DNA of 44,766 nt. Source: Vectrevirus DIJ06P1. The stretch is taken from the sequence record OZ035817.1; one strand, written 5' to 3'. The notes beneath the pieces are model-generated. The model searched no databases. It was not told the origin of the DNA and saw nothing but the letters and a program-made list of their open reading frames with translations. Shown here in pieces: positions 4,357-28,836 of the stretch. Numbering within the stretch: the stretch's first letter is position 1; each line of letters begins with the position of its first letter. The position numbers and the translations under genes were made by a program.

Positions 4357-4435
4357 GTAAGATAGCGCCGTTCTTTTGAGCGGCCTATTACTAGCCAATC
4401 TTCATAGGGAGGGTTGGAAAGTAATAGGAGATAGC

Positions 4436-6334: not shown

Positions 6335-6419
6335 GCAACAGGCAGTGCGTAAGCACTGCTTTTCACGCAACTTTTCTTAAAGGTTATCATGGTGGTAGCC
6401 TTTCAGAAAAGGAGGGTAC

Positions 6420-8471
6420 ATGCTACAAAGATTAGGGGCTTCCATGGTGAAGTTCAAGAGTAAACTCGCTGGTTCCATCGAACGTATACTCTCAGACAAG
6501 TTAATGGATACTGTAAGCGTTAAAGACTTTGGCGCTAAAGGAGATGGTATCACAGATGATACTGCTGCTTTCAAAGCAGCAATAACTTGTGGCGCATCTA
6601 GGGTATTAGTACCTGCAGGCAGGTATGTGATTACTGACACACTTTCTTTGCCATCTGGGGTCTGGTTATTTGGTGAAGGTGTTGACTATTGGGACACCTA
6701 TCGTCCAGACGAGGGTAGGCTTATTAAGTCATGGAGTAAAGGAACGCACCTTGTGTTCACTGGTAGTGGGTCTAAAAACAAGCAATTTCTTAATATCTCT
6801 AATGAACGCCCAACAAAGACAATAAATGGAGTAACTTGCTCTTTTACCGACTTCACTAATAGTGATGCACAAGTAACAGAACCTGCTACACCACGTAGTA
6901 TGAGTATTGCTGTATCAGTACAGGCAGGCAGTGGCTTACGCGATCTTCGTATTATGGTAAACAATGAAGGTATCTCTGGTTACAATGACTTTGTTTCTAC
7001 AAACAAGCTAGGTGACAACTGGGATATTGGGTTGCATGTATATGACAGCTCAGATGCTGTAATTGATAATGTGCAAGTTGTTGGCTATTGGAAGGTTGCA
7101 GGTACACTCTTAACGGAGAACGACGGCTCCATCACAATGCGTGGTAATCCAGAGAAGACACTATTTAATAAGTTCTACACTCAAGGTATCAGAGGTTTAC
7201 TTATTAGGAATAGCCCGCAAGTAGATGTAGTATCTCAAGAGTCAGCAACCAAGTTAACCATTAAAGCGAATGCTACTTCCCGTATATTAGCACAAAATGG
7301 TTTTCGAGTAGCAGGTAGTACTACGATACATAGATGGACTAGTGTTACAAGACAAGGAGACACTTATGTATTAGATGGCATCACACCTGAGTTACCTTCT
7401 GCTTCTGGCCTCGGGGTTGTTCGTTTCCCATCTATGGGTAACAATTGGTCTGGTACAGTGTTCAACAATACTGTTGCTGTGTCCTTTGAGCACTCATCCG
7501 GTAGAACCTCAAGACAACTAGGACTTCCTGTATCTTTTGCTATGGAGATTGATGGCTTCCCTTGTCGTAACCTCAAATTCATAAACTTCAAGGCACAGAC
7601 TTCTTACGATGAAGGAAATACATTGTTTGGTGATATGCGCGATGCCAAGTTTGTGGCTAGCGAGTTCGAGAATGGTAGGCTGATTGCGTATGATTTGTCT
7701 CAGACTCAAGGGTATACTGGTAATATGCGGTCTGCTGTGTCTGACATGCAGTTTCATTCCACTAATATTGAAGGCTTCACACCACGTGATTTCTTCTATG
7801 ACCTAGGACATTTTCCTACTTCTTATACTGATGGTTCTTTTATCATGAAGCATTGGCGAGAAAAGGATTTACAGGTACAATGGTATAATGGTAAAGCATT
7901 CATCCATCTACATGAAGATGATGGCCGTGTAACACTTACCAGTAAAGGCGGTCTAGATTTGTATAACTTTAGTTCTACAAAAGACGTGACGTTCAAGGGT
8001 CGCAACTTTGTATTCAAAAACGATGCAAGTGAAGACGTATTGAAGTGGTTTGGCGGTTCAGGGAATATCTCTACGAAAGGAAACATCTCGCCTATGGTAG
8101 ATGGGGTTGCCTCTCTGGGTACAAATTCCTATCGCTGGGGCGCAGTGCATTCAGTAAATGGGACGTTACAAACCTCTGACGGTAGGCTAAAGGAGATCCA
8201 CGATATTAAACAAGAAGAACTTGATGCGGGGATTGCATTATCAGCAAGTCTAATCAAGTATCGTTGGTATGGAGAAGAAAAGTTCCACTTTGGTTGTATT
8301 GCCCAAGAGGTAATGTTAATCATGGAGAAACATAATCTAGACCCATTACAGTATGGAATGGTGCAGTATGATGAAGAGGCAGACATCTTTAGTGTAAACT
8401 ATGCTGAATTGAACAGCTTCTGCATCGCAGCTCTGTCTAGGAGGTTGAATGCCATTAATCAAATCAGTTAA
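6420..8471 (+). CDS. tailspike 2, pectate-lyase-like beta-helix with C-terminal intramolecular chaperone domain
   Basis: ATG after AAAGGAGGG; VKDFGAKGDGITDDTAAFKAAI is a pectate-lyase-superfamily N-terminal motif; C-terminus SDGRLK...FHFGCIAQEV parallels tailspike 1. Confidence 0.8.
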   Translation: MLQRLGASMVKFKSKLAGSIERILSDKLMDTVSVKDFGAKGDGITDDTAAFKAAITCGASRVLVPAGRYVITDTLSLPSGVWLFGEGVDYWDTYRPDEGRLIKSWSKGTHLVFTGSGSKNKQFLNISNERPTKTINGVTCSFTDFTNSDAQVTEPATPRSMSIAVSVQAGSGLRDLRIMVNNEGISGYNDFVSTNKLGDNWDIGLHVYDSSDAVIDNVQVVGYWKVAGTLLTENDGSITMRGNPEKTLFNKFYTQGIRGLLIRNSPQVDVVSQESATKLTIKANATSRILAQNGFRVAGSTTIHRWTSVTRQGDTYVLDGITPELPSASGLGVVRFPSMGNNWSGTVFNNTVAVSFEHSSGRTSRQLGLPVSFAMEIDGFPCRNLKFINFKAQTSYDEGNTLFGDMRDAKFVASEFENGRLIAYDLSQTQGYTGNMRSAVSDMQFHSTNIEGFTPRDFFYDLGHFPTSYTDGSFIMKHWREKDLQVQWYNGKAFIHLHEDDGRVTLTSKGGLDLYNFSSTKDVTFKGRNFVFKNDASEDVLKWFGGSGNISTKGNISPMVDGVASLGTNSYRWGAVHSVNGTLQTSDGRLKEIHDIKQEELDAGIALSASLIKYRWYGEEKFHFGCIAQEVMLIMEKHNLDPLQYGMVQYDEEADIFSVNYAELNSFCIAALSRRLNAINQIS

Positions 8472-10332: not shown

Positions 10333-10428
10333 TTGGATGGTAGCTTCTTAGTCTGGATAGGTTAAACCTAGGAGATTCTCTTGAGTCTCCTATAATGTAA
10401 CCTAACTAACTAAATGAGGATTAATAAC

Positions 10429-10788
10429 ATGGCTATGTCTAATATGACTTACTCTCAGGTTTACAACAACGCTCATGCTGCATTAGTTGAACGTATCTGG
10501 AATGATGCTATTGATTGTATTGATAACGCGCATGATGCAATCCATGATGTGGCGGATAGTGCTGTACCAATCTATTATGCTGACATCTTCTCCGTGATGG
10601 CGAGTGAAGGAATTGATCATTTCTTCGAAGACTCCGGCCTGATGCCAGACACTAAGGATGTAACGGTAGTATTGCAAGCCCGTATCTATGAGCAACTCAC
10701 AATTGATCTATGGGAACGTGTTCAGTATATGATTGTTGAATACATCAACTCCGCCGAATATTTAGAAGAAGAAGAAGAGGAAGAATAA
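10429..10788 (+). CDS. ocr: Ocr-like DNA mimic (anti-restriction, T7 gp0.3 homolog)
   Basis: ATG at 10429 after GAGGA; [42 protein letters not shown] and [15 protein letters not shown] match T7 Ocr as I recall it; poly-Glu C-terminus. Confidence 0.85.
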
Positions 10789-11270: not shown

Positions 11271-12155
11271 ATGACTACTGAAAACACCCTCCTGTCTGTT
11301 CGTGAAGCTGCAACCGCTGAGATCAAGCAACACTTAGACAATATCGGCACTTCTTACATCAAAGTTGGCGCTTGTCTTAATGAGTTACGCGGTGACTTTG
11401 AAGGTCAAAAAGACTTTTTGGCTTATGTAGAATCAGAATTTGGAATCAAGAAAGCACAATGTTACAAGCTGATGAGTGTAGCCCGTGTCTTTGAAGGCGA
11501 TGATCGCTTTAAAGGCGTGGCGATGCGTGTAATGCTGGCGCTTGTTCCTTTCGCTGATGAAAATATAATCATGGAGAAGGCCGCAGAACTCGCCGCAAAT
11601 GGCAAGCTGGACACTAATGCCGTAAACGCCCTGATTGAACCTAAGAAAGAGTCAAAGGCCGAAACGGTACAATCTAAGGCTGAGACAGTAAAACCGCAGG
11701 AGAACGCGACTGAGTCCGCAGAATTACAGGAAATGCAAGCGCCGCAGGTAGTGCCACCCGCGAGCGAGCAGGAGGCCGACGAATCAGCACCTTGGGAAGA
11801 GGAAAGCAAGCCGGAAGCGCCTAAGGCCGCGCCACTGGATAACACGGCTAACACCGAGAATGCCACTATTGCTGGTCTGCTGGCACAAATTAAAGCACTG
11901 ACCGAGCAATTACAGGTAGCTAATGACCGCATTGCCTCCTTAAGCAGCGCACGCGAAAGCAAGAAAGCAGCCGCACCTATGCTGCCGCAGTTCAAATCTT
12001 CCTGCTTCTACGCTCGCTTAGGCTTGAGCGCTGAGGAGGCAACGAAGAAAACAGCAGTTAACAAGGCACGCCGCGAACTGGTTAAGCTAGGCTATGGTGA
12101 AGGCCATGAAGCATGGGCCTTAATCTCTGAGGCAGTAGAAGAATTAACTAAGTAA
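11271..12155 (+). CDS. hypothetical early protein with Ala/Glu/Lys-rich low-complexity linker
   Basis: ATG at 11271 (GTG at 11262 possible); folded N-terminal part, long low-complexity middle, helical C-terminus; sits where T7 has host-takeover genes but shows no kinase motifs. Confidence 0.55.
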   Translation: MTTENTLLSVREAATAEIKQHLDNIGTSYIKVGACLNELRGDFEGQKDFLAYVESEFGIKKAQCYKLMSVARVFEGDDRFKGVAMRVMLALVPFADENIIMEKAAELAANGKLDTNAVNALIEPKKESKAETVQSKAETVKPQENATESAELQEMQAPQVVPPASEQEADESAPWEEESKPEAPKAAPLDNTANTENATIAGLLAQIKALTEQLQVANDRIASLSSARESKKAAAPMLPQFKSSCFYARLGLSAEEATKKTAVNKARRELVKLGYGEGHEAWALISEAVEELTK

Positions 12156-12218
12156 CCTTATCGGTGGCATCTTCTTAGGTGTCACCTATTAAGGTTTCTT
12201 TCACTAGGAGTAAACAAG

Positions 12219-14846
12219 ATGCAAGACTTACACGCTATTCAACTTCAACTTGAAGAAGAAATGTTTAACGGCGGTATCCGTCGCTTTGAAGCGGACCAAC
12301 AGCGCCAGATTGCATCCGGTAATGAATCAGACACGGCATGGAATCGCCGCTTATTGTCCGAGTTAATTGCGCCAATGGCTGAAGGTATTCAGGCATACAA
12401 GGAAGAGTATGAAGGTAAAAGAGGCCGTGCACCGCGTGCATTAGCTTTCATTAACTGCGTAGAAAATGAAGTGGCAGCGTATATCACGATGAAAATCGTT
12501 ATGGATATGCTGAACACGGATGTAACCTTGCAGGCTATAGCCATGAATGTAGCTGACCGCATTGAGGACCAAGTACGTTTTAGCAAGCTGGAAGGTCACG
12601 CCGCCAAATACTTTGAAAAAGTTAAGAAGTCACTTAAGGCAAGTAAGACTAAATCATATCGCCATGCGCACAACGTAGCGGTAGTGGCTGAGAAGTCAGT
12701 AGCTGACCGTGACGCTGATTTCTCCCGCTGGGAGGCATGGCCTAAAGACACCTTGCTGCAAATTGGGATGACCTTGCTTGAAATCTTAGAGAATAGCGTA
12801 TTCTTCAACGGGCAACCTGTCTTCCTCCGCACCTTGCGCACTAATGGCGGCAAACATGGTGTTTACTACCTACAGACTAGTGAACACGTAGGTGAGTGGA
12901 TAACTGCATTTAAAGAACATGTAGCGCAACTTAGTCCAGCCTATGCACCTTGCGTTATTCCTCCGCGTCCGTGGGTATCACCCTTTAACGGTGGGTTTCA
13001 TACTGAGAAAGTAGCAAGCCGTATTCGTCTGGTAAAAGGCAATCGTGAGCACGTCCGCAAGCTGACCAAAAAGCAAATGCCAGCGGTTTACAAGGCTGTT
13101 AACGCTTTGCAGGCGACTAAGTGGCAGGTTAATAAAGAGGTTTTACAGGTTGTGGAGGACGTTATACGTCTAGACCTCGGCTATGGTGTACCTTCCTTTA
13201 AACCACTCATCGACCGTGAGAACAAGCCAGCTAATCCGGTGCCGTTAGAGTTCCAGCACCTGCGAGGCCGTGAACTGAAAGAAATGCTTACGCCGGAACA
13301 ATGGCAAGCCTTTATCAACTGGAAAGGTGAATGTACTAAGCTGTACACCGCTGAAACTAAGCGCGGAAGCAAATCGGCGGCAACCGTTCGCATGGTCGGT
13401 CAGGCCCGTAAATATAGCCAGTTCGACGCAATCTACTTCGTGTATGCACTGGACAGCCGCAGCCGTGTATACGCGCAATCTAGCACACTCTCACCGCAAT
13501 CAAATGACTTGGGCAAGGCCTTGCTCCGTTTTACCGAAGGGCAGCGTCTTGATAGCGCTGAGGCGCTTAAGTGGTTTTTGGTGAACGGGGCTAATAACTG
13601 GGGTTGGGATAAGAAAACTTTTGACGTGCGCACTGCTAACGTGCTGGATAGTGAATTTCAAGACATGTGCCGCGACATTGCAGCCAACCCGCTGACCTTC
13701 ACTCAATGGGTGAATGCTGATTCCCCTTATGGCTTCCTTGCATGGTGCTTTGAATATGCGCGTTATCTGGATGCACTGGACGAAGGAACGCAAGACCAAT
13801 TCATGACGCACCTACCCGTCCATCAAGATGGTAGTTGCTCTGGTATCCAGCACTATAGCGCGATGTTACGAGATGAAGTAGGTGCGAAAGCAGTAAACCT
13901 TAAGCCTTCTGACTCCCCTCAAGATATTTATGGCGCGGTTGCGCAGGTTGTTATCCAGAAGAATTACGCCTACATGAATGCAGACGACGCAGTGACTTTC
14001 ACATCCGGAAGCGTCACACTTACAGGTGCAGAACTGCGTAGCATGGCTAGTGCGTGGGATATGATAGGAATCACTCGCGGATTGACCAAAAAGCCCGTAA
14101 TGACACTACCTTATGGCAGCACACGTCTAACCTGCCGTGAATCAGTGATTGATTATATCGTTGATTTAGAAGAAAAAGAGGCCCAACGGGCTATTGCGGA
14201 AGGGCGTACCGCCAATCCTGTACACCCTTTTGATAATGACCGTAAAGACAGCCTGACACCTAGCGCAGCTTATAACTATATGACAGCTTTAATCTGGCCT
14301 TCTATTTCGGAAGTGGTTAAAGCTCCTATAGTGGCAATGAAAATGATTCGTCAGCTTGCCCGTTTCGCAGCTAAAAGGAATGAAGGCTTAGAGTATACCC
14401 TGCCTACTGGCTTCATCTTGCAACAAAAGATTATGGCTACTGATATGCTCCGCGTATCTACTTGCTTGATGGGAGAAATCAAGATGAGTCTACAGATTGA
14501 AACGGACGTAGTAGATGAAACGGCAATGATGGGCGCTGCTGCTCCTAACTTTGTGCATGGTCATGATGCCAGTCACCTTATCTTAACGGTCTGCGACCTT
14601 GTTGATAAAGGGATTACATCTATCGCAGTAATTCATGATTCTTTTGGCACTCATGCAGGCCGTACAGCCGATCTACGCAACAGCTTAAGGGCAGAAATGG
14701 TGAAAATGTACCAAGGCCGTAATGCACTGCAAAGCCTGCTAGATGAGCACGAAGAACGCTGGTTAGTTGATACAGGAATCCAAGTACCAGAGCAAGGGGA
14801 GTTTGACCTTAACGAAATCTTAGTTTCAGACTATTGCTTCGCATAA
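12219..14846 (+). CDS. single-subunit DNA-directed RNA polymerase, SP6 type
   Basis: 875 aa; hallmark blocks [24 protein letters not shown] and IHDSFGTH; very close to SP6 RNAP as I recall it, consistent with the SP6-type promoters. Confidence 0.95.
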
Positions 14847-15302: not shown

Positions 15303-15521
15303 ATGGCTAAATACAGAATCAAGACCTGTTTAAATAGTCACGGGCAAGAGTTCTACGTAGTGCAACGTAAAGTATTAGGCTTAATATGGGTCACTTGTAT
15401 GATGCCTATTGGCTATACTGATACAGAGGCTATCTTCTGCACCGAAAGGGATGCAAAGAAGTTTATCTCTAAGCGTAGAAAAGCTGACTCTTACCAACCT
15501 AGAATTATTAAGGTGAACTAA
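15303..15521 (+). CDS. hypothetical protein
   Basis: 72-aa ORF; stop overlaps the primase-helicase start. Confidence 0.45.
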   Translation: MAKYRIKTCLNSHGQEFYVVQRKVLGLIWVTCMMPIGYTDTEAIFCTERDAKKFISKRRKADSYQPRIIKVN

Positions 15522-17509
15522 TGGCTATTATTAATAACATCCCGTGCCCTGCCTGCCAGAAGAATGGGCACGATAAATCCGGCAATCATCTCATGATATT
15601 TGATGATGGTGCTGGCTATTGTAACCGTGGTCACTTCCATGATAATGGGAAGCCCTATTACCATAAGCCAGAGGGTGGTATCGAGATAACCGAATTGCCT
15701 ATTACTGGCAATATCAAATATACACCTTCTCAATTCAAAGAAATGGAGAAGGAAGGGAAGATAAGCGACCCTAAGCTACGCGCCATCGCTCTTGGTGGTA
15801 TGCGTATGAAAGACCGTTGGGAGGTCATGAATGAGCAAGAAAGGGCAGAGCAAGAAGCAGAGTGGAAACTTGATGTTGAATGGTTCCTCACGCTTAAGCG
15901 TAAGAACCTTGTTTCCAGACACATTCGCGGCGACATTTGCGCATTGTATGATGTACGTGTTGGGCACGATGAAGAGGGTAGAGTCTCACGGCATTACTAT
16001 CCACGCTTCGAAAAAGGTGAGCTAGTAGGCGCTAAGTGTCGTACCTTACCTAAAGATTTCAAGTTTGGACACTTAGGTAAACTCTTTGGTATGCAAGATC
16101 TTTTCGGTATGAATATTTTGTCTCACGTGTTAGACAAGGGAAGACGAAAGGATTGCTTGCTTATTGTGGGTGGGGAACTGGATGCACTAGCAGCGCAGCA
16201 GATGCTCCTTGATTCTGCCAAGGGTACTAAGTGGGAAGGTCAACCTTACCATGTATGGTCTGTTAACAAAGGGGAGTCTTGCCTTGAAGAGATTGTGCAG
16301 AACCGTGAACACATCGCCCAATTCAAGAAGATTATTTGGGGCTTCGATGGGGATGAGGTAGGGCAGAAGCAGAACCAGCAAGCGGCTCGCCTGTTCCCTG
16401 GCAAATCCTATATCCTTGAATATCCCTCTGGTTGCAAAGATGCTAACAAGGCATTGATGGCTGGCAAGGCTAAAGAATTTGTAGATGCATGGTTTAATGC
16501 CAAGTCATCTGATGAAGTCTTTGGTAGCCAGATTAAATCTATCGCATCTCAAAGGGATAAGCTCAAGGCTGCACGTCCAGAGCAAGGACTATCATGGCCT
16601 TGGCCTAAGCTGAACAAGGTAACGCTAGGTATTCGTAAGAACCAGCTTATCATTGTAGGTGCAGGGTCTGGTGTAGGTAAGACTGAGTTCCTTCGTGAAG
16701 TAGTTAAGCACCTCATTGAAGAACACGGTGAATCTGTAGGCATCATTTCTACAGAAGACCCGATGGTCAAGGTGTCCCGTGCTTTTATCGGCAAGTGGAT
16801 TGATAAGCGTATTGAGTTACCGCCAACCAACGACCCGAAAGAAGACGGATACCGTGAGGTGTTCGACTACACCGAGGAAGAAGCTAACGCCGCCATTGAT
16901 TATGTAGCTGATACAGGTAAGCTGTTTGTAGCTGACCTAGAGGGTGACTATTCGATGGAAAAGGTAGAGCAAACTTGCCTAGAGTTTGAGGCTATGGGCA
17001 TTTCTAATATCATCATTGATAACTTAACGGGGATTAAATTAGATGAGCGTGCTTTTGGTGGGAAGGTTGGTGCACTTGATGAATGCGTCAAGCGGATTGG
17101 TACTATCAAAGACCGACACCCGGTTACTATATTCCTTGTATCACACCTTACACGTCCTCCGGCAAACCGTACCCAACACGAAGAAGGTGGCGAAGTTATC
17201 CTTTCTGACTTCCGAGGCTCAGGAGCTATCGGATTCTGGGCATCTTACGCCTTGGGGATTGAGCGTAATACAAGAGCTGAAACGCTTGACGAAAGGACTA
17301 CCACGTACATCTCATGTGTCAAAGACCGCGACCAAGGTATCTACACTGGAACCAAGGTCATGCTTAAGGGTGACATTCAAACCGGACGTTTAATGGAACC
17401 ACAAGCCCGTACTAAGTCATTTGATACAGGTGAAGCAAGGCAACAAGAAGTACCAGATTTACCGGACACTATAGAAGAGACTAACTTCGATGAAGAAAGT
17501 GAGTTCTGA
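15521..17509 (+). CDS. DNA primase/helicase (T7 gp4-like)
   Basis: N-terminal Zn finger CPACQ...CNRGH; Walker A GAGSGVGKTEF; acidic C-terminal tail ending DEESEF. Confidence 0.9.
   Translation: MAIINNIPCPACQKNGHDKSGNHLMIFDDGAGYCNRGHFHDNGKPYYHKPEGGIEITELPITGNIKYTPSQFKEMEKEGKISDPKLRAIALGGMRMKDRWEVMNEQERAEQEAEWKLDVEWFLTLKRKNLVSRHIRGDICALYDVRVGHDEEGRVSRHYYPRFEKGELVGAKCRTLPKDFKFGHLGKLFGMQDLFGMNILSHVLDKGRRKDCLLIVGGELDALAAQQMLLDSAKGTKWEGQPYHVWSVNKGESCLEEIVQNREHIAQFKKIIWGFDGDEVGQKQNQQAARLFPGKSYILEYPSGCKDANKALMAGKAKEFVDAWFNAKSSDEVFGSQIKSIASQRDKLKAARPEQGLSWPWPKLNKVTLGIRKNQLIIVGAGSGVGKTEFLREVVKHLIEEHGESVGIISTEDPMVKVSRAFIGKWIDKRIELPPTNDPKEDGYREVFDYTEEEANAAIDYVADTGKLFVADLEGDYSMEKVEQTCLEFEAMGISNIIIDNLTGIKLDERAFGGKVGALDECVKRIGTIKDRHPVTIFLVSHLTRPPANRTQHEEGGEVILSDFRGSGAIGFWASYALGIERNTRAETLDERTTTYISCVKDRDQGIYTGTKVMLKGDIQTGRLMEPQARTKSFDTGEARQQEVPDLPDTIEETNFDEESEF
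17457..17480 (+). promoter_or_regulatory. SP6-type phage RNAP promoter inside the 3' end of the primase-helicase gene
   Basis: ATTTACCGGACACTATAGAAGAGA, full consensus match. Confidence 0.6.
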
Positions 17510-17530
17510 TTAGTGTATTTATCAGGGCTT

Positions 17531-17546
17531 GTCTCACATGTGAGAC
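17531..17546. repeat. palindrome GTCTCA-CATG-TGAGAC, copy c
   Basis: Flanks extend the stem (CTTGTCTCACATGTGAGACAGG); same extended sequence as copy f. Confidence 0.7.
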
Positions 17547-17585
17547 AGGCTCTTATTAAGTACATTAAATAACTGGAGATTGATT

Positions 17586-18269
17586 ATGTATAACTTAGTG
17601 TTGAATGTAGGTGACTTTGTACGCAACATCAAGAAAGATTCAAGTCGCTATCTTTGCCGTGGTGTTGTAACCTTTGTAGGTGAGAACCTGTATTATGTAG
17701 AATATCGCAGTGGTGTTAAGCAATATTACCACAAGAAGACAGCACATAAATATCTTGAAAAGATTGTAGAGATAAACAATCAATGTAAGTGCATACATGA
17801 TGAGGTTTGCGATAAATGTGCTCGCCAGATGCTTAAGAATTTCCTAGCTCCTCTTTATTATGGTGCTGGTCCTCAAACACTAGCAGAGTACATGGCAGAA
17901 AAGAAAACCACACTCAAGAAAGAGCGTCGCAATGTAATCACTGGTAAGACTCAAAGTGAGATGATTAAGCAATGTGGCACTGCATTAGGTGTTACACAGT
18001 TTAATACTCGTGCATTGGGTAAATCCACAGGACAAGCTATGGTAAAGATTGGAGAAGCCATGATGCATCCAAATGTACCTGTGCGAATCATGGATGTTGA
18101 CCATGCAATCACAGAACAAGGTACGCAACGACGTGTAATTAATAAGCATTTTGCCGACACTATAGAAGGTATTATTCGTAAGCAAGGGTTGAAAGGTCTT
18201 CACATCTTGAATGATGAAGAGTTACTGTACCTCCCTATTGTTACTGAAGAAACCTACGTGAATATCTAA
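17586..18269 (+). CDS. hypothetical protein
   Basis: ATG at 17586 after GGAGAT; 227 aa; AT-rich. Confidence 0.5.
   Translation: MYNLVLNVGDFVRNIKKDSSRYLCRGVVTFVGENLYYVEYRSGVKQYYHKKTAHKYLEKIVEINNQCKCIHDEVCDKCARQMLKNFLAPLYYGAGPQTLAEYMAEKKTTLKKERRNVITGKTQSEMIKQCGTALGVTQFNTRALGKSTGQAMVKIGEAMMHPNVPVRIMDVDHAITEQGTQRRVINKHFADTIEGIIRKQGLKGLHILNDEELLYLPIVTEETYVNI
18148..18170 (+). promoter_or_regulatory. weak phage-promoter-like sequence (intragenic)
   Basis: ATTTTGCCGACACTATAGAAGGT, 14 of 17 upstream positions match consensus. Confidence 0.3.
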
Positions 18270-18279
18270 GGAGTTAATC

Positions 18280-18498
18280 ATGACTAAAGTATTAATTTAT
18301 ATGCGTGGACCTCATAAATGCTATGCAGTTGTAGCACCAAATGGTGTTAAGCCTTATAGTACTTCAAAAGGATTGGCATTAATAGGTGCTAGTAGTAGTG
18401 CAAGTTTCCAAATGGAACTTTTTGGTCATTGGAATGAAAGGCAATTCCGTGAGGATTTTAAAGTCATTGGCAGCTTCATGGTGAAACATGCAGAATAA
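18280..18498 (+). CDS. hypothetical protein
   Basis: 72-aa ORF. Confidence 0.45.
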   Translation: MTKVLIYMRGPHKCYAVVAPNGVKPYSTSKGLALIGASSSASFQMELFGHWNERQFREDFKVIGSFMVKHAE

Positions 18499-18674
18499 AC
18501 ATAGTCTTAAAATGTTCGATGGTCATGAAGACCTGCAAGCCAAGATTACTAACCAAGCCTTCATGTTTGCACAGTTAACTATGGCTGAAGCAAAGAAGAA
18601 TAGCCTGACGCGTGAACAGGTTATCAAGGAAAGTGAAGTGAAACGTAAGATTCGCAGTCGATAAGTCAAGGGTT

Positions 18675-18690
18675 GTCTCACACGTGAGAC
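18675..18690. repeat. palindrome GTCTCA-CACG-TGAGAC, copy d
   Basis: Intergenic, upstream of the DNA polymerase gene. Confidence 0.7.
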
Positions 18691-18815
18691 AGCCTTTCAT
18701 CATATTGATTGGAGGTGCATTATGCCACGTGATTATGATTCTGATTGGGACTATTATGACTCAATGAATCCAAAACCCGAACGTTCAGATGATTACTACG
18801 AAACAGAGGCAATGT

Positions 18816-21362
18816 ATGAAGACTATTGATTGGAAGAAGGAGGCAGAAGGTCGTATCCTCGTGATGGATGCGGAAGCTAAAGGACTCCTTGACGCTATCC
18901 GATATAGACACCGTGAAGATGTGCATATCATTTGCTGCATGGATTTGCTTACTACCGAGGAGTTTCTCTTCTTTGACCCGTATGAGATGCGTGACCCTGA
19001 AGCAAGAGAACGCCTGAAGGAATGGGAAGGTCATCAAGATGGAACCTTGGTTGACGGTGTTAACTTCCTGAAGCACTGTGAGGCTATTGTGTCGCAGAAC
19101 TTCCTAGGGTATGACGGTCTTCTCTTTGAGAAAGCATTCCCTGATATTTGGAAAGGCTTTAACTATACCGAGAAGCGCGGTAAGGGCAGACTCCGTGCTG
19201 ACCTGTGTCCTATCCGTGTTGTAGATACGCTGGTGATGAGTCGTCTGCTAAACCCAGATAGACGCCTTCCTCCGCAAGCATATGCCAAAGGCATGGGTAA
19301 CGTCGCCCCTCACTCAATTGAGGCGCACGGCATCCGTATAGGCCGCTATAAACCAGAGAACGAGGACTGGTCTAAACTAACTGACCACATGGTTCACCGT
19401 GTACGTGAAGACGTGGCAATTGGTCGTGACCTTTTCCTATGGCTTTACAACGGAGAGTGGACGGAGCACAAACGCCGTGGCGTGAATAAACGTACTGGCC
19501 TAGGTATTGAGACAGCCTTCCACATGGAGTCCATTGTGGCGCTGGAGATGAGCCGTCAGGCCGAGCGCGGGTTCCGTCTGGACATCGACAAGGCTTTGGC
19601 CCGATGCGAAGAATTGGACGCTAAAATTGACGAGACAGTCGCAGCGTTCCGCCCTCACATGCCTATGCGTATCAAGTCTAAACCTTTTAAACCGGAAGAA
19701 AAGAATGAAGTATGCCAACGCGCAAATGAGTATGGAGTTAGCAACAATATACCTACTGTCCTTGACCCCTCACACTTTCTTCATGCCGAGAGACGAGGAG
19801 ATCGCAAGACAGTATGGAGTGTCACTACTAAGTCTGGTGATTGGTCGGCTAGTGTCAAGAAAGACTTCCCTCACCTTAGAGGAAACCGTAATGACACGCC
19901 AAGCATCAAGTGGATTGGCGCTTACTCGCCTGTTACTTTCGAAGAGATTCCCTTGGGTAACAGGGATACAGTTAAGCAAGTGCTCTATGATTATGGATGG
20001 AAAGGTGTTGAATTTAACGATACCGAGCAAGCTCATCTCGATGAACACGGAGTGTTACCCAAACCTTGGAGTGGTAAGATAAATGAAAAGTCCCTTACTT
20101 TATGGCAAGAAAGAGCCGCACGTGAAGGTAAAACAGTCCCTGATTGGTGCTTGGGTATCGCTGCATGGTACATACTCGTATCCCGTCGTGGTCAGATACT
20201 CAACCGTGGTGACGTTGAAGCCTTCAACGAGAAGGGAACGTGGCCCTCGCAGGCTGGTGTACGAAAGTGTCGCGGCCTTGTACCTGTAGCATTCAACAAG
20301 GAGCTAGGAATCAATGCGCAGCAATACTACGAGAGGTATGGATATTGGCCTACGTCTGACAAAGATGACGGGGAGTGGCGTGTTCCAGCTGTTGCTATTA
20401 GTATTGGCACTTCTACGTTCCGTATGCGTCATCGTAACGTGGTTAATATTCCTGCCCGTGGCTTGTATCCTTTACGTGATTTATTCATAGCAGGGAAAGG
20501 CAAGCTAATCCTTGGTTGTGACGGTGCAGGTCTTGAACTGCGTGTCCTGTCTCACTTCATGAATGACCCTGAGTACCAAGAGATTGTACTGCACGGTGAT
20601 ATTCATACGCATAACCAGATGAAGGCTGGTCTTCCTAAGCGTGATATGGCGAAGACGTTTATATACGCCTTCCTCTATGGCTCTGGTATAGCCAACCTTG
20701 CAGCAGTATGTGGTGTTACTGAGGCGGAAATGAAGGAAGTTGTGGCAAGATTCGAGATTGAACTGCCGTCTCTTGCACGTCTTCGTGAGAATGTTATCGC
20801 ACAAGGTAACAAGTTTGGCTACCTGCAAGCACCTGATGGGCATTGGGGTCGCATCCGCATGTCTGGTGGTGAACTTAAAGAGCACACGATGCTTAACGTA
20901 TTACTCCAGATGACTGGCTCTTTGTGTATGAAATATGCATTAGTAAAGGCATTTGCAGTAATGCGCAAGGAAGGTGTAGCCTTGGATGCTATGGGAAATC
21001 CTTGTGGTGTGGCTAACGTGCATGATGAAATCCAGATGGAAGTTCCTGAAGAGGAGGTCTTGTATCTTAACTACGACCTACCTTTCACCTTAGATGGGTT
21101 CGAAACAGAGAAGGCTGCCGTGAAAGCAGTGTTCGATGCAGAGGAGAAACGTGTTCATGTGGATTCTGAAGGACGTATGTGGTCTGCTGCAAACCTCGTC
21201 AGTGTTGATGCTGATGCTGGTGTATTGCATTGCCAGCGCCGTTATCACCGTGCAGGGCATATCATTGCCGACGCCATGATTTGGGCTGGTCAGTATCTGA
21301 AGATGCGTTGCCCGATGGCAGGAGAATATAAGATTGGCACAAGTTGGAAGGAAACACACTGA
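18816..21362 (+). CDS. DNA polymerase (T7 gp5-like, family A)
   Basis: ATG at 18816 after AGAGG (ORF-track start 18789 also possible); blocks GLELRVLSHF and KTFIYAFLYGSG match family A motifs A and B. Confidence 0.9.
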   Translation: MKTIDWKKEAEGRILVMDAEAKGLLDAIRYRHREDVHIICCMDLLTTEEFLFFDPYEMRDPEARERLKEWEGHQDGTLVDGVNFLKHCEAIVSQNFLGYDGLLFEKAFPDIWKGFNYTEKRGKGRLRADLCPIRVVDTLVMSRLLNPDRRLPPQAYAKGMGNVAPHSIEAHGIRIGRYKPENEDWSKLTDHMVHRVREDVAIGRDLFLWLYNGEWTEHKRRGVNKRTGLGIETAFHMESIVALEMSRQAERGFRLDIDKALARCEELDAKIDETVAAFRPHMPMRIKSKPFKPEEKNEVCQRANEYGVSNNIPTVLDPSHFLHAERRGDRKTVWSVTTKSGDWSASVKKDFPHLRGNRNDTPSIKWIGAYSPVTFEEIPLGNRDTVKQVLYDYGWKGVEFNDTEQAHLDEHGVLPKPWSGKINEKSLTLWQERAAREGKTVPDWCLGIAAWYILVSRRGQILNRGDVEAFNEKGTWPSQAGVRKCRGLVPVAFNKELGINAQQYYERYGYWPTSDKDDGEWRVPAVAISIGTSTFRMRHRNVVNIPARGLYPLRDLFIAGKGKLILGCDGAGLELRVLSHFMNDPEYQEIVLHGDIHTHNQMKAGLPKRDMAKTFIYAFLYGSGIANLAAVCGVTEAEMKEVVARFEIELPSLARLRENVIAQGNKFGYLQAPDGHWGRIRMSGGELKEHTMLNVLLQMTGSLCMKYALVKAFAVMRKEGVALDAMGNPCGVANVHDEIQMEVPEEEVLYLNYDLPFTLDGFETEKAAVKAVFDAEEKRVHVDSEGRMWSAANLVSVDADAGVLHCQRRYHRAGHIIADAMIWAGQYLKMRCPMAGEYKIGTSWKETH

Positions 21363-21478
21363 TGGATAGGCTTGACATTGTTTGCCTGTTCTTCACTTTC
21401 TTTCTTACACTCCTTATGCTTGCTTGTTATGGGAGTGTGAGACTAGATGTACCTGATGAAGAAGAGGGTTACGACTAA
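21362..21478 (+). CDS. tiny membrane peptide, 38 aa
   Basis: ATG overlaps the polymerase stop (TGATG); hydrophobic core; below the ORF-track cutoff. Confidence 0.25.
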   Translation: MDRLDIVCLFFTFFLTLLMLACYGSVRLDVPDEEEGYD

Positions 21479-21576
21479 TGCAAACTGCTTTTATTATTCT
21501 TGGTATCGTATTATTTATGGTAGTACTCTGGGCCTTCTCTGGCATTGACCCGGATTGTGATGGTAACTACGACTGA
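21478..21576 (+). CDS. tiny membrane peptide, 32 aa
   Basis: ATG overlaps the preceding stop (TAATG); hydrophobic core IILGIVLFMVVLWAF. Confidence 0.25.
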   Translation: MQTAFIILGIVLFMVVLWAFSGIDPDCDGNYD

Positions 21577-21633
21577 GTTATACTCAAGGTCACTTACGAG
21601 TGGCCTTTATGAATAACTTAACTGGAGAGTATT

Positions 21634-21894
21634 ATGATTAAATCACAGAAGTATTTCTCAACTAAAGATCGTAAGGTAGGTTTTGAAATCAAAGTTTGGG
21701 AAGACGGACACATTACTATTATTTACGAAGGTAAAGGTTCTAATGGTATGATGCTACGTAGATGCCGTACATTCACAAAGAAAGAATGTATGCATATGTC
21801 TGAATGCATGTTTCTTTACATCATTGCTGATGATATTAAAGGTATGAAGCTAATTGTATCTCTACCTTTAATACCTAAATCTTTGTTAGGTTGA
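21634..21894 (+). CDS. hypothetical protein
   Basis: 86-aa ORF, AT-rich. Confidence 0.45.
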   Translation: MIKSQKYFSTKDRKVGFEIKVWEDGHITIIYEGKGSNGMMLRRCRTFTKKECMHMSECMFLYIIADDIKGMKLIVSLPLIPKSLLG

Positions 21895-21918
21895 TTTACT
21901 GGACACTATAGAAGGAAA
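21894..21918 (+). promoter_or_regulatory. SP6-type phage RNAP promoter
   Basis: ATTTACTGGACACTATAGAAGGAAAG; followed by a TAGGT-repeat leader. Confidence 0.75.
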
Positions 21919-21980
21919 GCCTAGGTAATCTAGGTTTATAAGGTAGTATGGGTAATTAAGTAAATATAGGAGATATAAAT

Positions 21981-22358
21981 ATGTCAATGGTAACTACTCT
22001 GGTATTTGTAGCTCAATACTTTCGTGGTCTGGCTAATAAGTTCAAATCCAAGGCTATCAAAGCTATTGAGTCTCGCATCGAGGCAGTACAGGCAGAGCAA
22101 GTTAAAGTTGAAGAACATCGTAGTTCTCAAATGATTGACTGTCATAACCGCTACTATGCATCTCGTGATGAACTAAATGCACGTCAAGTCAAAGAGGTAG
22201 AAGATATGCTGGCACGTCACCAGCAAGAGCGTGACAGCCTGAAAGCTGAATTTGAAGAGAACAAGGCATCAATTGCTCTTGTAAATCAAGCTGCATCTGA
22301 CAGCCTGAAGAAAGAGATTGTTATGCTGGAAATAGAACTGGACAACTTGTCTAAATAA
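21981..22358 (+). CDS. hypothetical coiled-coil protein
   Basis: ATG after AGGAG; hydrophobic N-terminus then heptad-like charged region. Confidence 0.5.
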   Translation: MSMVTTLVFVAQYFRGLANKFKSKAIKAIESRIEAVQAEQVKVEEHRSSQMIDCHNRYYASRDELNARQVKEVEDMLARHQQERDSLKAEFEENKASIALVNQAASDSLKKEIVMLEIELDNLSK

Positions 22359-22364
22359 GGGGTT

Positions 22365-22664
22365 ATGATGGAAGAAGTGATTCAAGCTAAACATGTAGGT
22401 ATCATCTTTCGTGATCTAGAGCAGCGTAAAGTTGCAGGTCACACTCGTCTGGCTAAAGAATACGATACAGCAATCACTACTGTGGAACAAGCAGATGCCT
22501 ATCGTGGTCCAGAGTTTACTCAAGGTGAAACTTGTCATCAATTGAGCCTTTCACTTTGTGACACTATGGCTAGTGTAAATGTACAAGAGGTTGAAGATGG
22601 TGAATGTGTTAGTTATGTCTACCCTCTCGACACTATTGCACGTATTAAGGTAGTTCATAAGTAA
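22365..22664 (+). CDS. hypothetical protein
   Basis: 99-aa ORF. Confidence 0.5.
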   Translation: MMEEVIQAKHVGIIFRDLEQRKVAGHTRLAKEYDTAITTVEQADAYRGPEFTQGETCHQLSLSLCDTMASVNVQEVEDGECVSYVYPLDTIARIKVVHK

Positions 22665-22686
22665 TTACTGGACACTATAGAACAAT
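22664..22686 (+). promoter_or_regulatory. SP6-type phage RNAP promoter
   Basis: ATTACTGGACACTATAGAACAATAGG, overlapping the upstream stop codon. Confidence 0.7.
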
Positions 22687-22741
22687 AGGTCGGCTTAGTT
22701 CGGCCTATGATTGTGTAGTGTAACAATAGGAGACTAAATAA

Positions 22742-23548
22742 ATGGCACGTGGTGATTTTGATTTTGGTGCTCAGGTTACTAAAGCTGAAGGTAAAGTATT
22801 TAAGAACCCTGAAGTTGGTGATCATGAAGCAGTAATCTCTGGCATCATTCATGTTGGTTCCTTCCAAGATATCTTTAAGAAAGGTAATACCACTGAAGTT
22901 AAGAAGCCAGCAAACTTTGTTCTTGTTAAGATTATCCTGATGGGTGACGACGATAAGAATGAAGATGATTCTCGCATGGAACAATGGATGGCTGTGCCTC
23001 TGAAGTCTGGTGATAAGGCAACACTGACTAAGTTCCTGAATGCAGTTGACCCTAAAGAGTTGCTGGGTGGCTTCGATGATTTTATCGGTGAATGTCTGAC
23101 TGCAACTATGGTTGGCTCTGGCGACAAGAATGATGATGGTACTTTCAAGTATGTTAACTGGAAAGGCTTTGGCGGTATGCCTGATAAGTTGAAGAAGCTT
23201 GTACTGGCTCAGGTAGAAGAGGAAGGTCTGTCTATGACAGGTCATATCACCTTCGACAAGCTGACCAAAGAAATCCTTGATGACATCCCAGCTAACTTGG
23301 TACGTCAATACTTCCTGAACGAGACACCTCGTGGTAAGAACCTGTCTGTTGCTGGCTCTCACGTAGAAGCTATTATCAAAGCTGCTCGTGAAGAAGACCC
23401 TGAATGGAAGAAGGCTAAGAAGAAAGACGAGGAAGATGCTACCCCAGCTAATCGTAAATCTCTGGATACTGGTGAGTCTGTTCCACAGGAAGTACCTGAA
23501 GCAGAAGATACTCCTGCACCGGAGATGGATGAGGACGCGGAATATTAA
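22742..23548 (+). CDS. acidic protein, possible ssDNA-binding protein
   Basis: ATG after AGGAG; 268 aa; acidic C-terminal tail ending EMDEDAEY, like the T7 gp2.5 tail; fold not verifiable by eye. Confidence 0.35.
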   Translation: MARGDFDFGAQVTKAEGKVFKNPEVGDHEAVISGIIHVGSFQDIFKKGNTTEVKKPANFVLVKIILMGDDDKNEDDSRMEQWMAVPLKSGDKATLTKFLNAVDPKELLGGFDDFIGECLTATMVGSGDKNDDGTFKYVNWKGFGGMPDKLKKLVLAQVEEEGLSMTGHITFDKLTKEILDDIPANLVRQYFLNETPRGKNLSVAGSHVEAIIKAAREEDPEWKKAKKKDEEDATPANRKSLDTGESVPQEVPEAEDTPAPEMDEDAEY

Positions 23549-23557
23549 GGAGAAAGG

Positions 23558-23776
23558 ATGAAAGTACAAATCGTAACCCTGCACTGCAAGAAAGGAATTA
23601 CAACTCTTGGCGGCAACACTTTTCACTCCTTCTCTGAGGGGGGCACATATGCCGACCTGCACTACATCTGGCGCGACGGACAGCACGTGGTGAACTACAG
23701 CGACCCAGCTACGGGGAAACGCCACGGCGTATCGCTTCCGGCGCATGACATTGCTCAGGTGAACACAGTTTTATAA
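23558..23776 (+). CDS. hypothetical protein, GC-rich compositional outlier
   Basis: 72-aa ORF after AAGGAG; noticeably GC-richer with GCG/CGC/GGC codons unlike its neighbours. Confidence 0.45.
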   Translation: MKVQIVTLHCKKGITTLGGNTFHSFSEGGTYADLHYIWRDGQHVVNYSDPATGKRHGVSLPAHDIAQVNTVL

Positions 23777-23777
23777 A

Positions 23778-23793
23778 GTCTCACGTGTGAGAC
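23778..23793. repeat. palindrome GTCTCA-CGTG-TGAGAC, copy e
   Basis: Reverse-orientation version of copies a and d; 16 nt upstream of the promoter at 23809. Confidence 0.7.
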
Positions 23794-23808
23794 AAATCGG
23801 TGTCCGGT

Positions 23809-23832
23809 ATTTACTGGACACTATAGAAGAGA
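23809..23832 (+). promoter_or_regulatory. SP6-type phage RNAP promoter
   Basis: ATTTACTGGACACTATAGAAGAGAAG. Confidence 0.75.
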
Positions 23833-23881
23833 AGAATTTTAATCGGCGATAATGCCATAACCAACAAAAGGAGAATTTAAT

Positions 23882-24253
23882 ATGTTCAAGATTGAAACTA
23901 TCGTAAACCGTGTTGTTAAAGGTGCTGCTCTGGTATCCGTTGAGTCTTTCATTATCGTCGATGAAGCTGATCAACTGGTAGCTGGTACTAAGGCTTACGA
24001 TACCCGTGAAGAAGCTCAGGCTAAGATTGACAGCATGGGTAACTTCGCTGCTGGTCTGGAGTTCGCTCGTGCTTGCTTCCCTGAGCAGGCTGACAAAGCC
24101 CAGATCGGTAAGGCTAACATCGTAGCTGAATATCTGGATTGGATTGCTGCTGGTAAACCAGTGAAAGAAGTTAAAGCTGCTGAAGAAGCTGAAGCTCCGG
24201 CAGTAGAAGAAACCAAAGCAGAAGAAGTACTGTCTGCTGAAGAAGAATTTTAA
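23882..24253 (+). CDS. small acidic protein in a promoter-terminator cassette (function unknown)
   Basis: ATG after AAAGGAG; 123 aa; strongly biased codons; C-terminus ends SAEEEF; followed directly by a terminator. Confidence 0.6.
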   Translation: MFKIETIVNRVVKGAALVSVESFIIVDEADQLVAGTKAYDTREEAQAKIDSMGNFAAGLEFARACFPEQADKAQIGKANIVAEYLDWIAAGKPVKEVKAAEEAEAPAVEETKAEEVLSAEEEF

Positions 24254-24317: not shown

Positions 24318-24590
24318 ATGCCGACTATTGAATCTCGAATTACAATGGACATTAGCTACAATGCAATCACCAGACAATACATTGGGGTGGCCTATGATTA
24401 CAAAACTGGTGAGAAGCTAGTGGAGGTGAGACAATGGGATGACTATTGGTTAAGACAGAACCTCCATGATGCGGTGTCCTCCTTCTTGAAGGAGTGGCCT
24501 ACATGCGACCAAACTTCGACTTCGGAGCTACAGTATCGGAAGACAATAATCTCATCCTGTGGCCAACTGAAGGTAATAGAATCGCTTTAA
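24318..24590 (+). CDS. hypothetical protein (3' end overlaps exonuclease gene)
   Basis: ATG after GGAG; the last 88 nt overlap the exonuclease ORF in another frame. Confidence 0.3.
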   Translation: MPTIESRITMDISYNAITRQYIGVAYDYKTGEKLVEVRQWDDYWLRQNLHDAVSSFLKEWPTCDQTSTSELQYRKTIISSCGQLKVIESL

Positions 24591-25531
24591 TAGATGCTGA
24601 TATGCTACCCTACATCGTAGCTTATACAATCAGTGACATGACTTATGTGCGAGCCACAACTCGTGTTAAGTCAGGACAAGTCCCATCAATCAAAGATACA
24701 CCTGAGTGTAAGCAAGCGTGTGACCGTGTGAACTCCTTGCTTAACTCTTGGGTATACGCAGCAGAGTGCGATGCAGCTAAGTTATTCATGACGAAATCAG
24801 AAGCTAACTTCCGTGTTCGCCTAGCCTTCACCAAGCCTTATAAGGGTCAACGTAAGACCGAGAAGCCTCCGTTCTTCTGTGAATTGCGAGAGCATCTCTT
24901 AGAGGTTCATGGTGCAATCTTGGCAGATGGAGAAGAGGCTGATGACCTCATGAGCATTGCACAATGGGACAGCCACCGCCGCTTCCAGCAAGATACAGGT
25001 AACGAGTTCCCTATCGGTAGTCCAGAGCATAAAGCATTCTCTGATACTTGCATCGTTTCCTTAGATAAGGATTTGATGATTGTTCCCGGTTGGCATCTTC
25101 AGCCGGGTCAAGAGAAGAAATGGGTAGAGCCTATGGGTTGGCTTGAGTTACGCCGTAAGGCTAATGGTCAGGTTAAAGACCTTAAAGGTGCTGGCCTCAT
25201 GTTTCATTATGCACAGATGATTATCGGTGATGATATTGATAACTATGCTGGCATACCTGGACGTGGTGCTAAATACGCCTATGATCTTCTCAAAGATTGT
25301 AAGACAGAGAAAGAGTTGTACATGGCAGTGCTTGGTGCTTACAAGGCTAAGTTCGGACATGGACAAGTTAAGATTAAGAATTACCGAGGTGGTTATCGTA
25401 TCGGCAAGGCTTTTGACCTGATGCTCGAATGTGGTCGCCTAGCTCACATGGCAAGATTCAAAGGTGATATATGGCGAGCCGATAAGAACCCAATCTTGTG
25501 GGGAGATGATGCGGAATGGTTAGCAAATTAA
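24503..25531 (+). CDS. 5'-3' exonuclease (T7 gp6-like, FEN family)
   Basis: ATG at 24503 after GAAGGAG (GTG at 24494 possible); N-terminal IALIDADMLPYIVAY and central acidic clusters typical of FEN-type nucleases. Confidence 0.8.
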   Translation: MRPNFDFGATVSEDNNLILWPTEGNRIALIDADMLPYIVAYTISDMTYVRATTRVKSGQVPSIKDTPECKQACDRVNSLLNSWVYAAECDAAKLFMTKSEANFRVRLAFTKPYKGQRKTEKPPFFCELREHLLEVHGAILADGEEADDLMSIAQWDSHRRFQQDTGNEFPIGSPEHKAFSDTCIVSLDKDLMIVPGWHLQPGQEKKWVEPMGWLELRRKANGQVKDLKGAGLMFHYAQMIIGDDIDNYAGIPGRGAKYAYDLLKDCKTEKELYMAVLGAYKAKFGHGQVKIKNYRGGYRIGKAFDLMLECGRLAHMARFKGDIWRADKNPILWGDDAEWLAN

Positions 25532-27531: not shown

Positions 27532-27705
27532 ATGGAAGGTAAACTGTATAGAGGGTACTTCGGTAACTTATATAAAGTAAGCTCTCGCGGTTTTGTATTG
27601 ACCTCTGATGATGAAGGTGCAATGTGGCACATAAGTGCATATGGTTCTAACTTAGCACACTTTAAAGAGGCAATAGTCAAAGGTGTGATGAAGGAGGTGA
27701 AATGA
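27532..27705 (+). CDS. hypothetical small protein
   Basis: ATG at 27532; 57 aa; stop overlaps the ligase start. Confidence 0.35.
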   Translation: MEGKLYRGYFGNLYKVSSRGFVLTSDDEGAMWHISAYGSNLAHFKEAIVKGVMKEVK

Positions 27706-28649
27706 ACATCTTCCAATTCCTAGGTCTTCCAGAAGACCACCGCAATCATCCATTCATGCTGGTGAAGCATCGCGGTGAAGTTCCTGAGAAGAAACTTACT
27801 TTTCCATGTTATGCACAGGTGAAACGAGATGGAATATTCAGTGCTGTTGTGGTGCGCAATGATGGTGCTGTTGCCGTCTTTGGTCGTACTGGTAAGAAGC
27901 TCGCAAATGTTGAAGCCTTGGAAAAGACATTTAGTGTATTTCCTGTCGGGTTGTATCTTGGTGAGTTGCAATCTATGGCTGTTGATGTTTATCTTGAAGC
28001 TCTGTCAGGAGTGGTAAACCCTAATCGTACAGAGCCACTTAACTTCATAGGCCAGCAGATTAAAGACAACCTGTATATCGACTTCTTCGATATGTTAACT
28101 ATTAAGGCATTCCATGATGGATTCACTGATGTTTCTTATCTCAAACGTTACGATGCTTTACATCGTCGTATCGGCACTCATCTTAGCGGGTGCAACGCTA
28201 TCCTTCCTATCACTCCTTGCCATAATGAGCGAGAAGTTGAAGCGTTTGCGCAAGAGCAAATAGATGCAGGACGTGAGGGTGCCGTATTCAAACTGGACTG
28301 CGATTATGAAGCAGGACACAAAGGTTATCGTCAGACTAAAGAAGTCCGTAAGGTAACTTATGACCTTACTTGTATTGGCTTTGAAGAAGGTAAAGGTAAA
28401 TACAAAGGTAAGGTAGCTAACCTCATTTTCAAGTGGAAAGGGGGCAAGACAATCAAAGCTATGCTCGGTAAAGGGTGGACTCATGCAGATGCAGAACAGA
28501 TGTTCCACGACATTAAACATGGTGGACGATTGAATGTCATTGGTAAAATCTTTGAAGTCAAAGGTCTTCAGGATTCAAGCAAGGGCAACATTCGTCTGCC
28601 CAAAGCGGGAGAATTAAGACATGACAAAGATGAACCAGATTTCTTTTGA
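27702..28649 (+). CDS. ATP-dependent DNA ligase
   Basis: ATG after GAAGGAGG; adenylation motif KRDG in AQVKRDGIFSAVV; size about 315 aa. Confidence 0.8.
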   Translation: MNIFQFLGLPEDHRNHPFMLVKHRGEVPEKKLTFPCYAQVKRDGIFSAVVVRNDGAVAVFGRTGKKLANVEALEKTFSVFPVGLYLGELQSMAVDVYLEALSGVVNPNRTEPLNFIGQQIKDNLYIDFFDMLTIKAFHDGFTDVSYLKRYDALHRRIGTHLSGCNAILPITPCHNEREVEAFAQEQIDAGREGAVFKLDCDYEAGHKGYRQTKEVRKVTYDLTCIGFEEGKGKYKGKVANLIFKWKGGKTIKAMLGKGWTHADAEQMFHDIKHGGRLNVIGKIFEVKGLQDSSKGNIRLPKAGELRHDKDEPDFF

Positions 28650-28836
28650 TAGCATGAAGGCAACTCGTGCAGTTGAGGTAGCAGAAGCTATCTTTGAAAC
28701 TTTATCCTGTGGCATGGAAGTGCCATATACTTTACTTGCTGATGCAGAAGAACTTGGTCTTTCTGTAGAAGCTATCCAAGAGAAGGTTGACGAATTATAT
28801 GGTACAGACGAAGAAGAAACCGACGATTTCATTTGA
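28621..28836 (+). CDS. hypothetical acidic protein
   Basis: 71-aa ORF; acidic C-terminus. Confidence 0.4.
   Translation: MTKMNQISFDSMKATRAVEVAEAIFETLSCGMEVPYTLLADAEELGLSVEAIQEKVDELYGTDEEETDDFI

Follow-up and report, generated by a model that had tools for sequence, protein, structure and literature searches.

Why do several proteins of one phage replication module end in the same short, acidic, aromatic-tipped tail, and what might these tails bind? The question is raised by Vectrevirus DIJ06P1 (sequence record OZ035817.1), whose stretch of 44,766 nucleotides (nt), here called the window, is a complete, circularly permuted genome. The Vectrevirus phages T205P4, K1E and K1-5 share 94-97% DNA identity with the region, and the matching phages belong to the Autographiviridae, subfamily Molineuxvirinae (K1E/K1-5/SP6-type). 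The initial annotation had reported a T7-style tail on three open reading frames (ORFs), those of the primase-helicase, of gp16 (K1E gene 16) and of gp18 (K1E gene 18), and their translations do end ...EETNFDEESEF, ...APEMDEDAEY and ...VLSAEEEF. The likeness holds up in the T7 record, in which gp2.5 ends ADEDGDF and gp4 ends SNDTDF; no other T7 protein has such an acidic tail, the terminase ending in E-W but not being acidic. The tails are probably copies of a conserved C-terminal short linear motif that tethers several SP6-type replication proteins to a common partner. As proposed here, this motif would consist of an acidic, disordered linker that closes with [DE]-[FY] at or beside the free carboxyl end, and its inferred receiver, by analogy to T7, would be the DNA polymerase.

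In the primase-helicase, the phrog_239 profile spans residues 2-645 of 662, and a tail of about 17 residues extends beyond it. The tails of gp16 and gp18 are predicted to be disordered, with a predicted local distance difference test score (pLDDT) below 50 for gp16 residues 230-268 and of 49-69 for the last 30 residues of gp18. Among 52 non-overlapping plus-strand ORFs of the window, only these three end in [DE][FYW]; at a proteome dipeptide frequency of 0.011, P(>=3) = 0.019. A stricter definition of the tail, which demands a terminal aromatic residue and, among the last eight, three or more acidic residues but no basic one, corresponds to an 8-mer frequency of 0.0028 and yields P = ~4e-4. 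The tails might be explained as a composition effect in acidic early proteins: other proteins of the window also have acidic ends, e.g., the ocr-like anti-restriction protein (10414-10788), which resembles T7 gp0.3 (...EEYEEDEE) and terminates in seven consecutive Glu residues (EEEEEEE), and the loose test gives just P = 0.019. The strict test already speaks against such a coincidence, but a stronger argument that the tails are real comes from their conservation.

A profile search assembled 86 relatives of gp16, all unnamed and devoid of Pfam domains, 84 of which are full-length. The last residue is F or Y in 81 of the 84, with Glu at -2 in 78, and in the three exceptions EF or DF is followed by one or two more residues; the family consensus is [AP]-P-x-[ML]-D-x-x-x-E-[FY]. 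All 120 close homologues of gp18 terminate in EEEF, and 17 of 21 more distant representatives (>=100 aa, 30-72% identity) carry [DE]-x-F followed by at most one further residue; Glu occupies position -3 in 13 of 15. The Ala/Glu/Pro-rich linker before the tail differs among them in both length and sequence. For the remaining proteins, 24-kb regions were read in nine relatives, phages of Salmonella, Erwinia, Edwardsiella, Vibrio, Pseudomonas, Marinomonas, Aeromonas and Pantoea hosts that span Molineuxvirinae, Colwellvirinae and unclassified genera. The primase-helicase terminates in x-[ED]-F or STF in eight of the nine (down to 43% identity). A fourth carrier, missed by the initial annotation, is the DNA ligase, which ends DEPDFF (nt 28629-28646) after motif VI (RHDK); directly after motif VI its orthologues end PDVF (SP6), PDY, GDF, PDF, GDF, ADF, PDY and GDY, and all ten phages read, the window included, have D-[FY] or a close variant at the ligase terminus. 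In each relative's region, products with a terminal or nearly terminal [DE][FY] come almost exclusively from orthologues of the helicase, gp16, gp18 and ligase. This conservation spans 27-70% identity, while the linkers ahead of the tails vary freely. At the level of sequence, the alignments show that selection holds the motif in four sets of orthologues (helicase-primase, gp16, gp18 and ligase) as their linkers drift. Because the terminal aromatic is kept in 81/84, 17/21 and 8/9 of the respective proteins and in nearly all nine ligase orthologues as neighbouring residues change, a composition effect is contradicted and its probability is negligible.

Downstream of the ligase, a 71-aa ORF likewise finishes in an acidic stretch, TDEEETDDFI, with EADYQY (SP6) and DEDEQDY (Era103) in orthologues, and is a possible, weaker fifth tail carrier. 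A small hydrophobic ORF (21344-21478) that overlaps the end of the polymerase gene terminates in DEEEGYD; K1E genes 13.5 and 14 and SP6 gp15 encode comparable short membrane-like peptides with GYD or NYD ends. Such small hydrophobic ORFs, ending EEEGYD or DGNYD, were excluded from the tail system as membrane peptides. With four to five carriers, this group differs from T7, which has two and whose ligase lacks a tail (end QEKM).

Genes 16 and 18 are annotated in K1E as "hypothetical protein", and both belong to PHROG families of unknown function. Structure prediction, which the initial annotation had suggested as a check, finds an oligonucleotide/oligosaccharide-binding (OB) fold in gp16, and its best structural matches are proteins that bind single-stranded DNA (ssDNA). 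In the AlphaFold2 model, built from a 27-sequence alignment (pLDDT 78; predicted template modelling score, pTM, 0.72), the OB-fold core of about residues 20-225 is confident, with the N-terminal ~18-19 residues and residues ~230-268 disordered. PrgE, LEF-3, RPA, POT1 and DUF669 proteins head the list of matches. A Foldseek search of predicted viral structures (BFVD) retrieved three "DUF669 domain-containing" proteins (E 3.7e-5 to 1.4e-4), one annotated ssDNA-binding protein (SSB; E in the range 4e-5 to 1e-4) and a large number of podophage proteins that are uncharacterised (E as low as 1e-10). The gp16 family profile aligns with phiKMV ORF21 (hhalign probability 82.8%, E 9.4e-6, 175 columns), and the order polymerase, gp16/ORF21, exonuclease, endonuclease VII is the same in phiKMV. 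In phiKMV-like phages, DUF669 proteins have been reported at the gene position between polymerase and exonuclease (PMC9145550), and it has been proposed that DUF669/N4-type proteins are SSBs with a diverged OB fold and an acidic tail, found in viruses that have no other SSBs (PMC4889955). By profile gp16 belongs with phiKMV ORF21, and by fold with DUF669-like proteins.

Judged by predicted fold and synteny, the SSB of this phage group, unannotated so far, is most probably gp16, and gp16 most probably a functional analogue, not a homologue, of T7 gp2.5. PHROG scans of 36 window ORFs gave no match to an SSB family, the remaining ORFs belonging mostly to the structural module. Homologues of gp16 occur in 215 GenBank phage records and, among the matches listed, those that are annotated all call the gene hypothetical; a literature search on SSBs of SP6-type phages found nothing specific. 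SP6, K1E and K1-5 are classic phages, used in therapy too, in which no SSB has been annotated, and naming gp16 as the probable SSB fills in a missing piece of this well-known replication module.

The resemblance to known systems is partial in each case. With the DUF669, N4 and HK620 SSBs gp16 shares a highly diverged, here predicted, OB fold, and with HK620 SSB also an acidic tail with a terminal aromatic. For HK620 SSB, ssDNA binding has been demonstrated, and its six C-terminal residues, NDYPPF, are required for stimulation of its partner (PMC5928155). The two proteins also show an N-terminal match, F-x-Y...G-x-F-x-N-x-E-x-G-x-H, which is suggestive. The phiKMV ORF21 is alike in profile and gene position but differs in its Ala/Pro/Val-rich tail, which has no acidic or aromatic tip. 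In phiKMV, moreover, primase and helicase genes are separate, no replication protein carries such a tail and the ligase ends GVKV; by this comparison of sequences, the tails accompany the fused gp4-type helicase-primase. PrgE, the closest solved fold, has a flexible N-terminal arm, as does gp16; this PrgE tail binds the neighbouring monomer on ssDNA, which confers cooperativity. PrgE differs in being only 15% identical to gp16 and 144 aa long, gp16 having ~80 additional helical residues past the OB core, and in the text read it shows no acidic aromatic tail. Pfam DUF669 gave no match to 27 gp16-family members at E up to 5, a test of little power as HK620 and N4 SSBs are likewise without a Pfam match. 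Profile searches started from distant gp16 relatives toward an annotated family returned only the closed set of 86 unnamed proteins. Residues 20-106 of gp16 have a sub-threshold similarity to NCBIfam NF046043, "phage replication initiation protein, NGO0469 family" (E 0.0015; 18 bits vs. a cut-off of 75).

The second of the two small tail-bearing proteins is of a different kind. gp18 is acidic (isoelectric point, pI, 4.4; 4.7 for the core, residues 1-92), and its core is modelled as a β-hairpin followed by three helices; a structure search of the PDB with this model gave no convincing match. The initial annotation had offered two SSB candidates or, alternatively, one SSB plus a third tail-bearing protein. 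As the gp18 model has no OB fold, gp18 is rejected as a second SSB and the first option falls; the second survives, with the OB fold predicted for gp16 and not for gp18.

The tip of the host SSB begins with Met-Asp. The gp16 tip, P-x-M-D-x-D-x-E-Y, resembles in outline that of bacterial SSBs, DDDIPF (PMC5928155), and gp18 is encoded at the gene position at which T7 carries the small host-directed proteins gp5.5 and gp5.9. The tails could accordingly be imagined to imitate the bacterial tip and to recruit or block its host readers, with gp18 as a dedicated decoy. This is very improbable: none of the tails has an I-P-F tip, E or D standing at -2 as in T7 tails, and it is hard to see why the helicase and ligase should carry a host decoy. 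Even the host-like tip of HK620 SSB acts on a phage partner (PMC5928155).

Tethering to a common partner within the replisome, the probable function, is best approached through the helicase. The primase-helicase is a gp4 homologue: it matches phrog_239 (E 1.7e-188), T7 gp4 by blastp (E 5e-27, 25% identity over 459 aa) and, in Pfam, DnaB_C (E 1.3e-14) and Toprim_2. Its tail is like that of T7 gp4 (...STDWSNDTDF), ~17 residues long, with aromatics at -7 and -1 and with position -2 acidic. In T7, two surfaces of the gp5 polymerase, its front basic patch and its thioredoxin-binding domain (TBD) basic patch, are bound by the tails of gp4 and gp2.5, which compete with one another and serve in loading, processivity, polymerase exchange and SSB displacement (bioRxiv 10.64898/2026.05.20.726333; PMC12339929). 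Since the primase-helicase is a true gp4 homologue with a tail of equal length and the same -7/-1 aromatic spacing, a conserved role of this tail is the simplest reading, and by analogy it would recruit the DNA polymerase and retain it at the fork. gp16, gp18 and the ligase may, by extension, reach the same site, an inference from the likeness of their tails. Here, as in T7, an SSB-type protein, the candidate gp16, has a disordered acidic tail with an aromatic end, and the tails are alike enough to compete for one site. On the T7 precedent, the gp16 tail would shield the DNA-binding cleft of gp16 itself and hand gp16 over to the polymerase and to partners such as the exonuclease, and look-alike tails competing for one basic site would allow partner exchange. 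Two further steps go beyond any precedent: the ligase might be brought to Okazaki-fragment nicks via its minimal tail, and gp18 might be a small client of the same site that does not bind DNA and either serves as an accessory factor or, as a competitor, adjusts access.

Self-shielding could conceivably be the whole function, the tails being DNA mimics that fold back on the nucleic-acid-binding surface of their own protein and resemble each other through parallel evolution. Such autoinhibition is on record for the tails of E. coli SSB and T7 gp2.5 (PMC12339929; PMC5928155), and the motif takes a distinct form in each group, [ML]-D-x-x-x-E-[FY] in gp16, E-x-F in gp18 and [PGA]-D-[FY] in the ligase. 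In gp18, however, the acidic core is no recognisable DNA binder and offers nothing obvious to shield, and the invariant terminal aromatic is a hallmark of docking into a pocket, not of charge mimicry. With both roles coexisting in T7, autoinhibition as the sole explanation is improbable.

gp16 and the 5'-3' exonuclease have a second motif in common, located 3-12 residues from the start: F-[DN]-[FY]-G-[AG]-x-[VIL]-[AST]-E, with the core FD[FY]G[AG]. In an all-frame pattern search of the window and the nine relatives, each phage yielded the motif in this pair of proteins and, apart from one stray match, nowhere else; the same search of T7 and phiKMV did not find it. It is present in 78 of the 84 gp16 relatives, and FDxG in 83. 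Within a given phage the two proteins agree in having the Gly-Gly or the Gly-Ala variant. Because their motif copies are written in different synonymous codons, selection acts at the protein level. A reasonable idea, drawn by analogy, is that the nuclease copies the N-terminal arm of the SSB to dock on SSB-coated DNA.

Several observations weigh against the tethering proposal or against gp16 as its SSB. The ligase tail has only ~6 residues and could simply pack on the OB domain of the ligase. The aromatic is not terminal in the SP6 helicase (SP6 region 5257-7242), which ends QEFNG, or in Pseudomonas phage Ulitu01, where gp16 (11995-12762) ends EFGE and gp18 (13334-13687) ends ETFE; a free carboxylate on the aromatic is thus not always needed. 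T7 gp2.5 and gp16 have no detectable sequence relation (hhalign probability 0.07%), which rules out gp16 as a gp2.5 homologue at the sequence level, hhalign comparisons of gp16 with the single sequences of N4 SSB and HK620 SSB gave no significant match, and neither did searches of Pfam and of PDB sequences. The gp16 core is acidic (pI 5.1). Finally, the surfaces of T7 gp5 that receive the tails are not present in the window polymerase: in a MAFFT alignment with eight SP6-type polymerases the front basic patch (K587/K589/R590/R591) falls in a gap, and the thioredoxin-binding loop is replaced by a non-homologous 106-aa insertion. Transfer of the T7 docking residues to the window polymerase therefore failed, and the tail-receiving site cannot be placed by homology. 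The basic insertion, or a conserved R-x-R-K-rich hairpin that follows the gap at the position of the T7 patch, could receive the tails instead.

Loss of the T7 patches also raises the prospect of a hub other than the polymerase, with the tails docking on the gp16 cleft, the exonuclease or the helicase and the SSB filament serving as platform. The T7 gp2.5 tail also contacts gp4 (bioRxiv 10.64898/2026.05.20.726333) and is required for stimulation of the gp6 exonuclease (PMC4124056). The N-terminal motif common to gp16 and the exonuclease favours this alternative as well, and the binding of neighbouring monomers by the PrgE arm points to an SSB-centred assembly. A different hub is nevertheless unlikely, given that the insertion at the polymerase thumb, with its pI of 9.6, or the hairpin could accept acidic tails and that, of the roles such a tail has in T7, linking helicase to polymerase is the one documented best.

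The C-terminal and N-terminal motifs can be combined into a more elaborate proposal, which we regard as tentative. A replisome without a clamp would use a two-motif address code, in which at least four clients compete for one site through their C-terminal tails, the N-terminal arm links SSB and exonuclease, and gp18, with a new fold, acts as regulator or decoy. As part of this same tentative proposal, the exonuclease would copy the filament-forming arm of the SSB and sit at the end of SSB-coated DNA.

In bacteria, the C-terminal tip of SSB, a disordered linker, an acidic run and a final aromatic, is read by many partners and makes SSB a hub of genome maintenance. The phage system differs in that the tip is present on several proteins, not on one SSB with many readers, and the Ile-Pro before the Phe is absent. 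In PIP-box and other clamp-binding motifs, one short motif brings polymerase partners, nuclease and ligase to a common platform. The phage system has no sliding clamp and its motif is an acidic C-terminal one, the likeness being one of function alone; should the tails of the ligase and gp18 dock where the others do, the C-terminal tethers would be a clamp-less counterpart of these motifs. The tail principle itself is already known from T7 and bacterial SSB. It appears to be more conserved than either partner, because the tail logic is kept while the SSB candidate comes from a different family and the tail-reading surface of the T7 polymerase is missing. A specialist would not have predicted the non-homologous SSB, the loss of the T7 receiving patch or the additional clients, ligase included.

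Coordinates of the replication proteins, their motifs and other landmarks of the window
Feature	Position (nt)	Strand	Residues or sequence	Remarks
Primase-helicase	15521..17509	+	662 aa	K1E gp9, T7 gp4-like
Primase-helicase tail	17456-17506		final 17 residues, DLPDTIEETNFDEESEF	aromatics at -7 and -1
DNA polymerase	18789..21362	+		family A
Polymerase basic insertion	19650-19967		residues 288-393 (106 aa)	pI 9.6; conserved in SP6-type polymerases
gp16	22742..23548	+	268 aa	K1E gene 16; candidate SSB
gp16 N-terminal arm	22757-22783 (motif)		residues 1-19, MARGDFDFGAQV...	conserved; disordered in model
gp16 acidic linker and tail	23417-23545		residues 226-268	disordered; end APEMDEDAEY
gp18	23882..24253	+	123 aa	K1E gene 18; phrog_4429, function unknown
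gp18 linker and tail	24158-24250		residues 93-123	disordered, Ala/Glu/Pro-rich; end SAEEEF
5'-3' exonuclease	24494..25531	+		FEN type; functional counterpart of T7 gp6
Exonuclease N-terminal arm	24503-24550; motif 24515-24541		MRPNFDFGATVSED (MRPNFDFGATV...)	
DNA ligase	27702..28649	+		ATP-dependent
ORF downstream of ligase	28621..28836	+	71 aa	
RNA polymerase	12219-14846			
Large terminase	722-2659			
Tail spikes	4376-6334 and 6420-8471			two different genes in tandem

The structural genes reach to the end of the window. The small genes on either side of gp16, K1E 15.5 (22365-22664) and K1E 17 (23558-23776), both match phrog_8057 and are therefore distant paralogues. K1E gene 17 also scores barely above the Pfam gathering threshold for PF01307, "Plant viral movement protein" (23.8 vs. 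22.6 bits), a match that is probably spurious. At the other end of the window, an HNH endonuclease ORF (184-774) overlaps the start of the large terminase gene.

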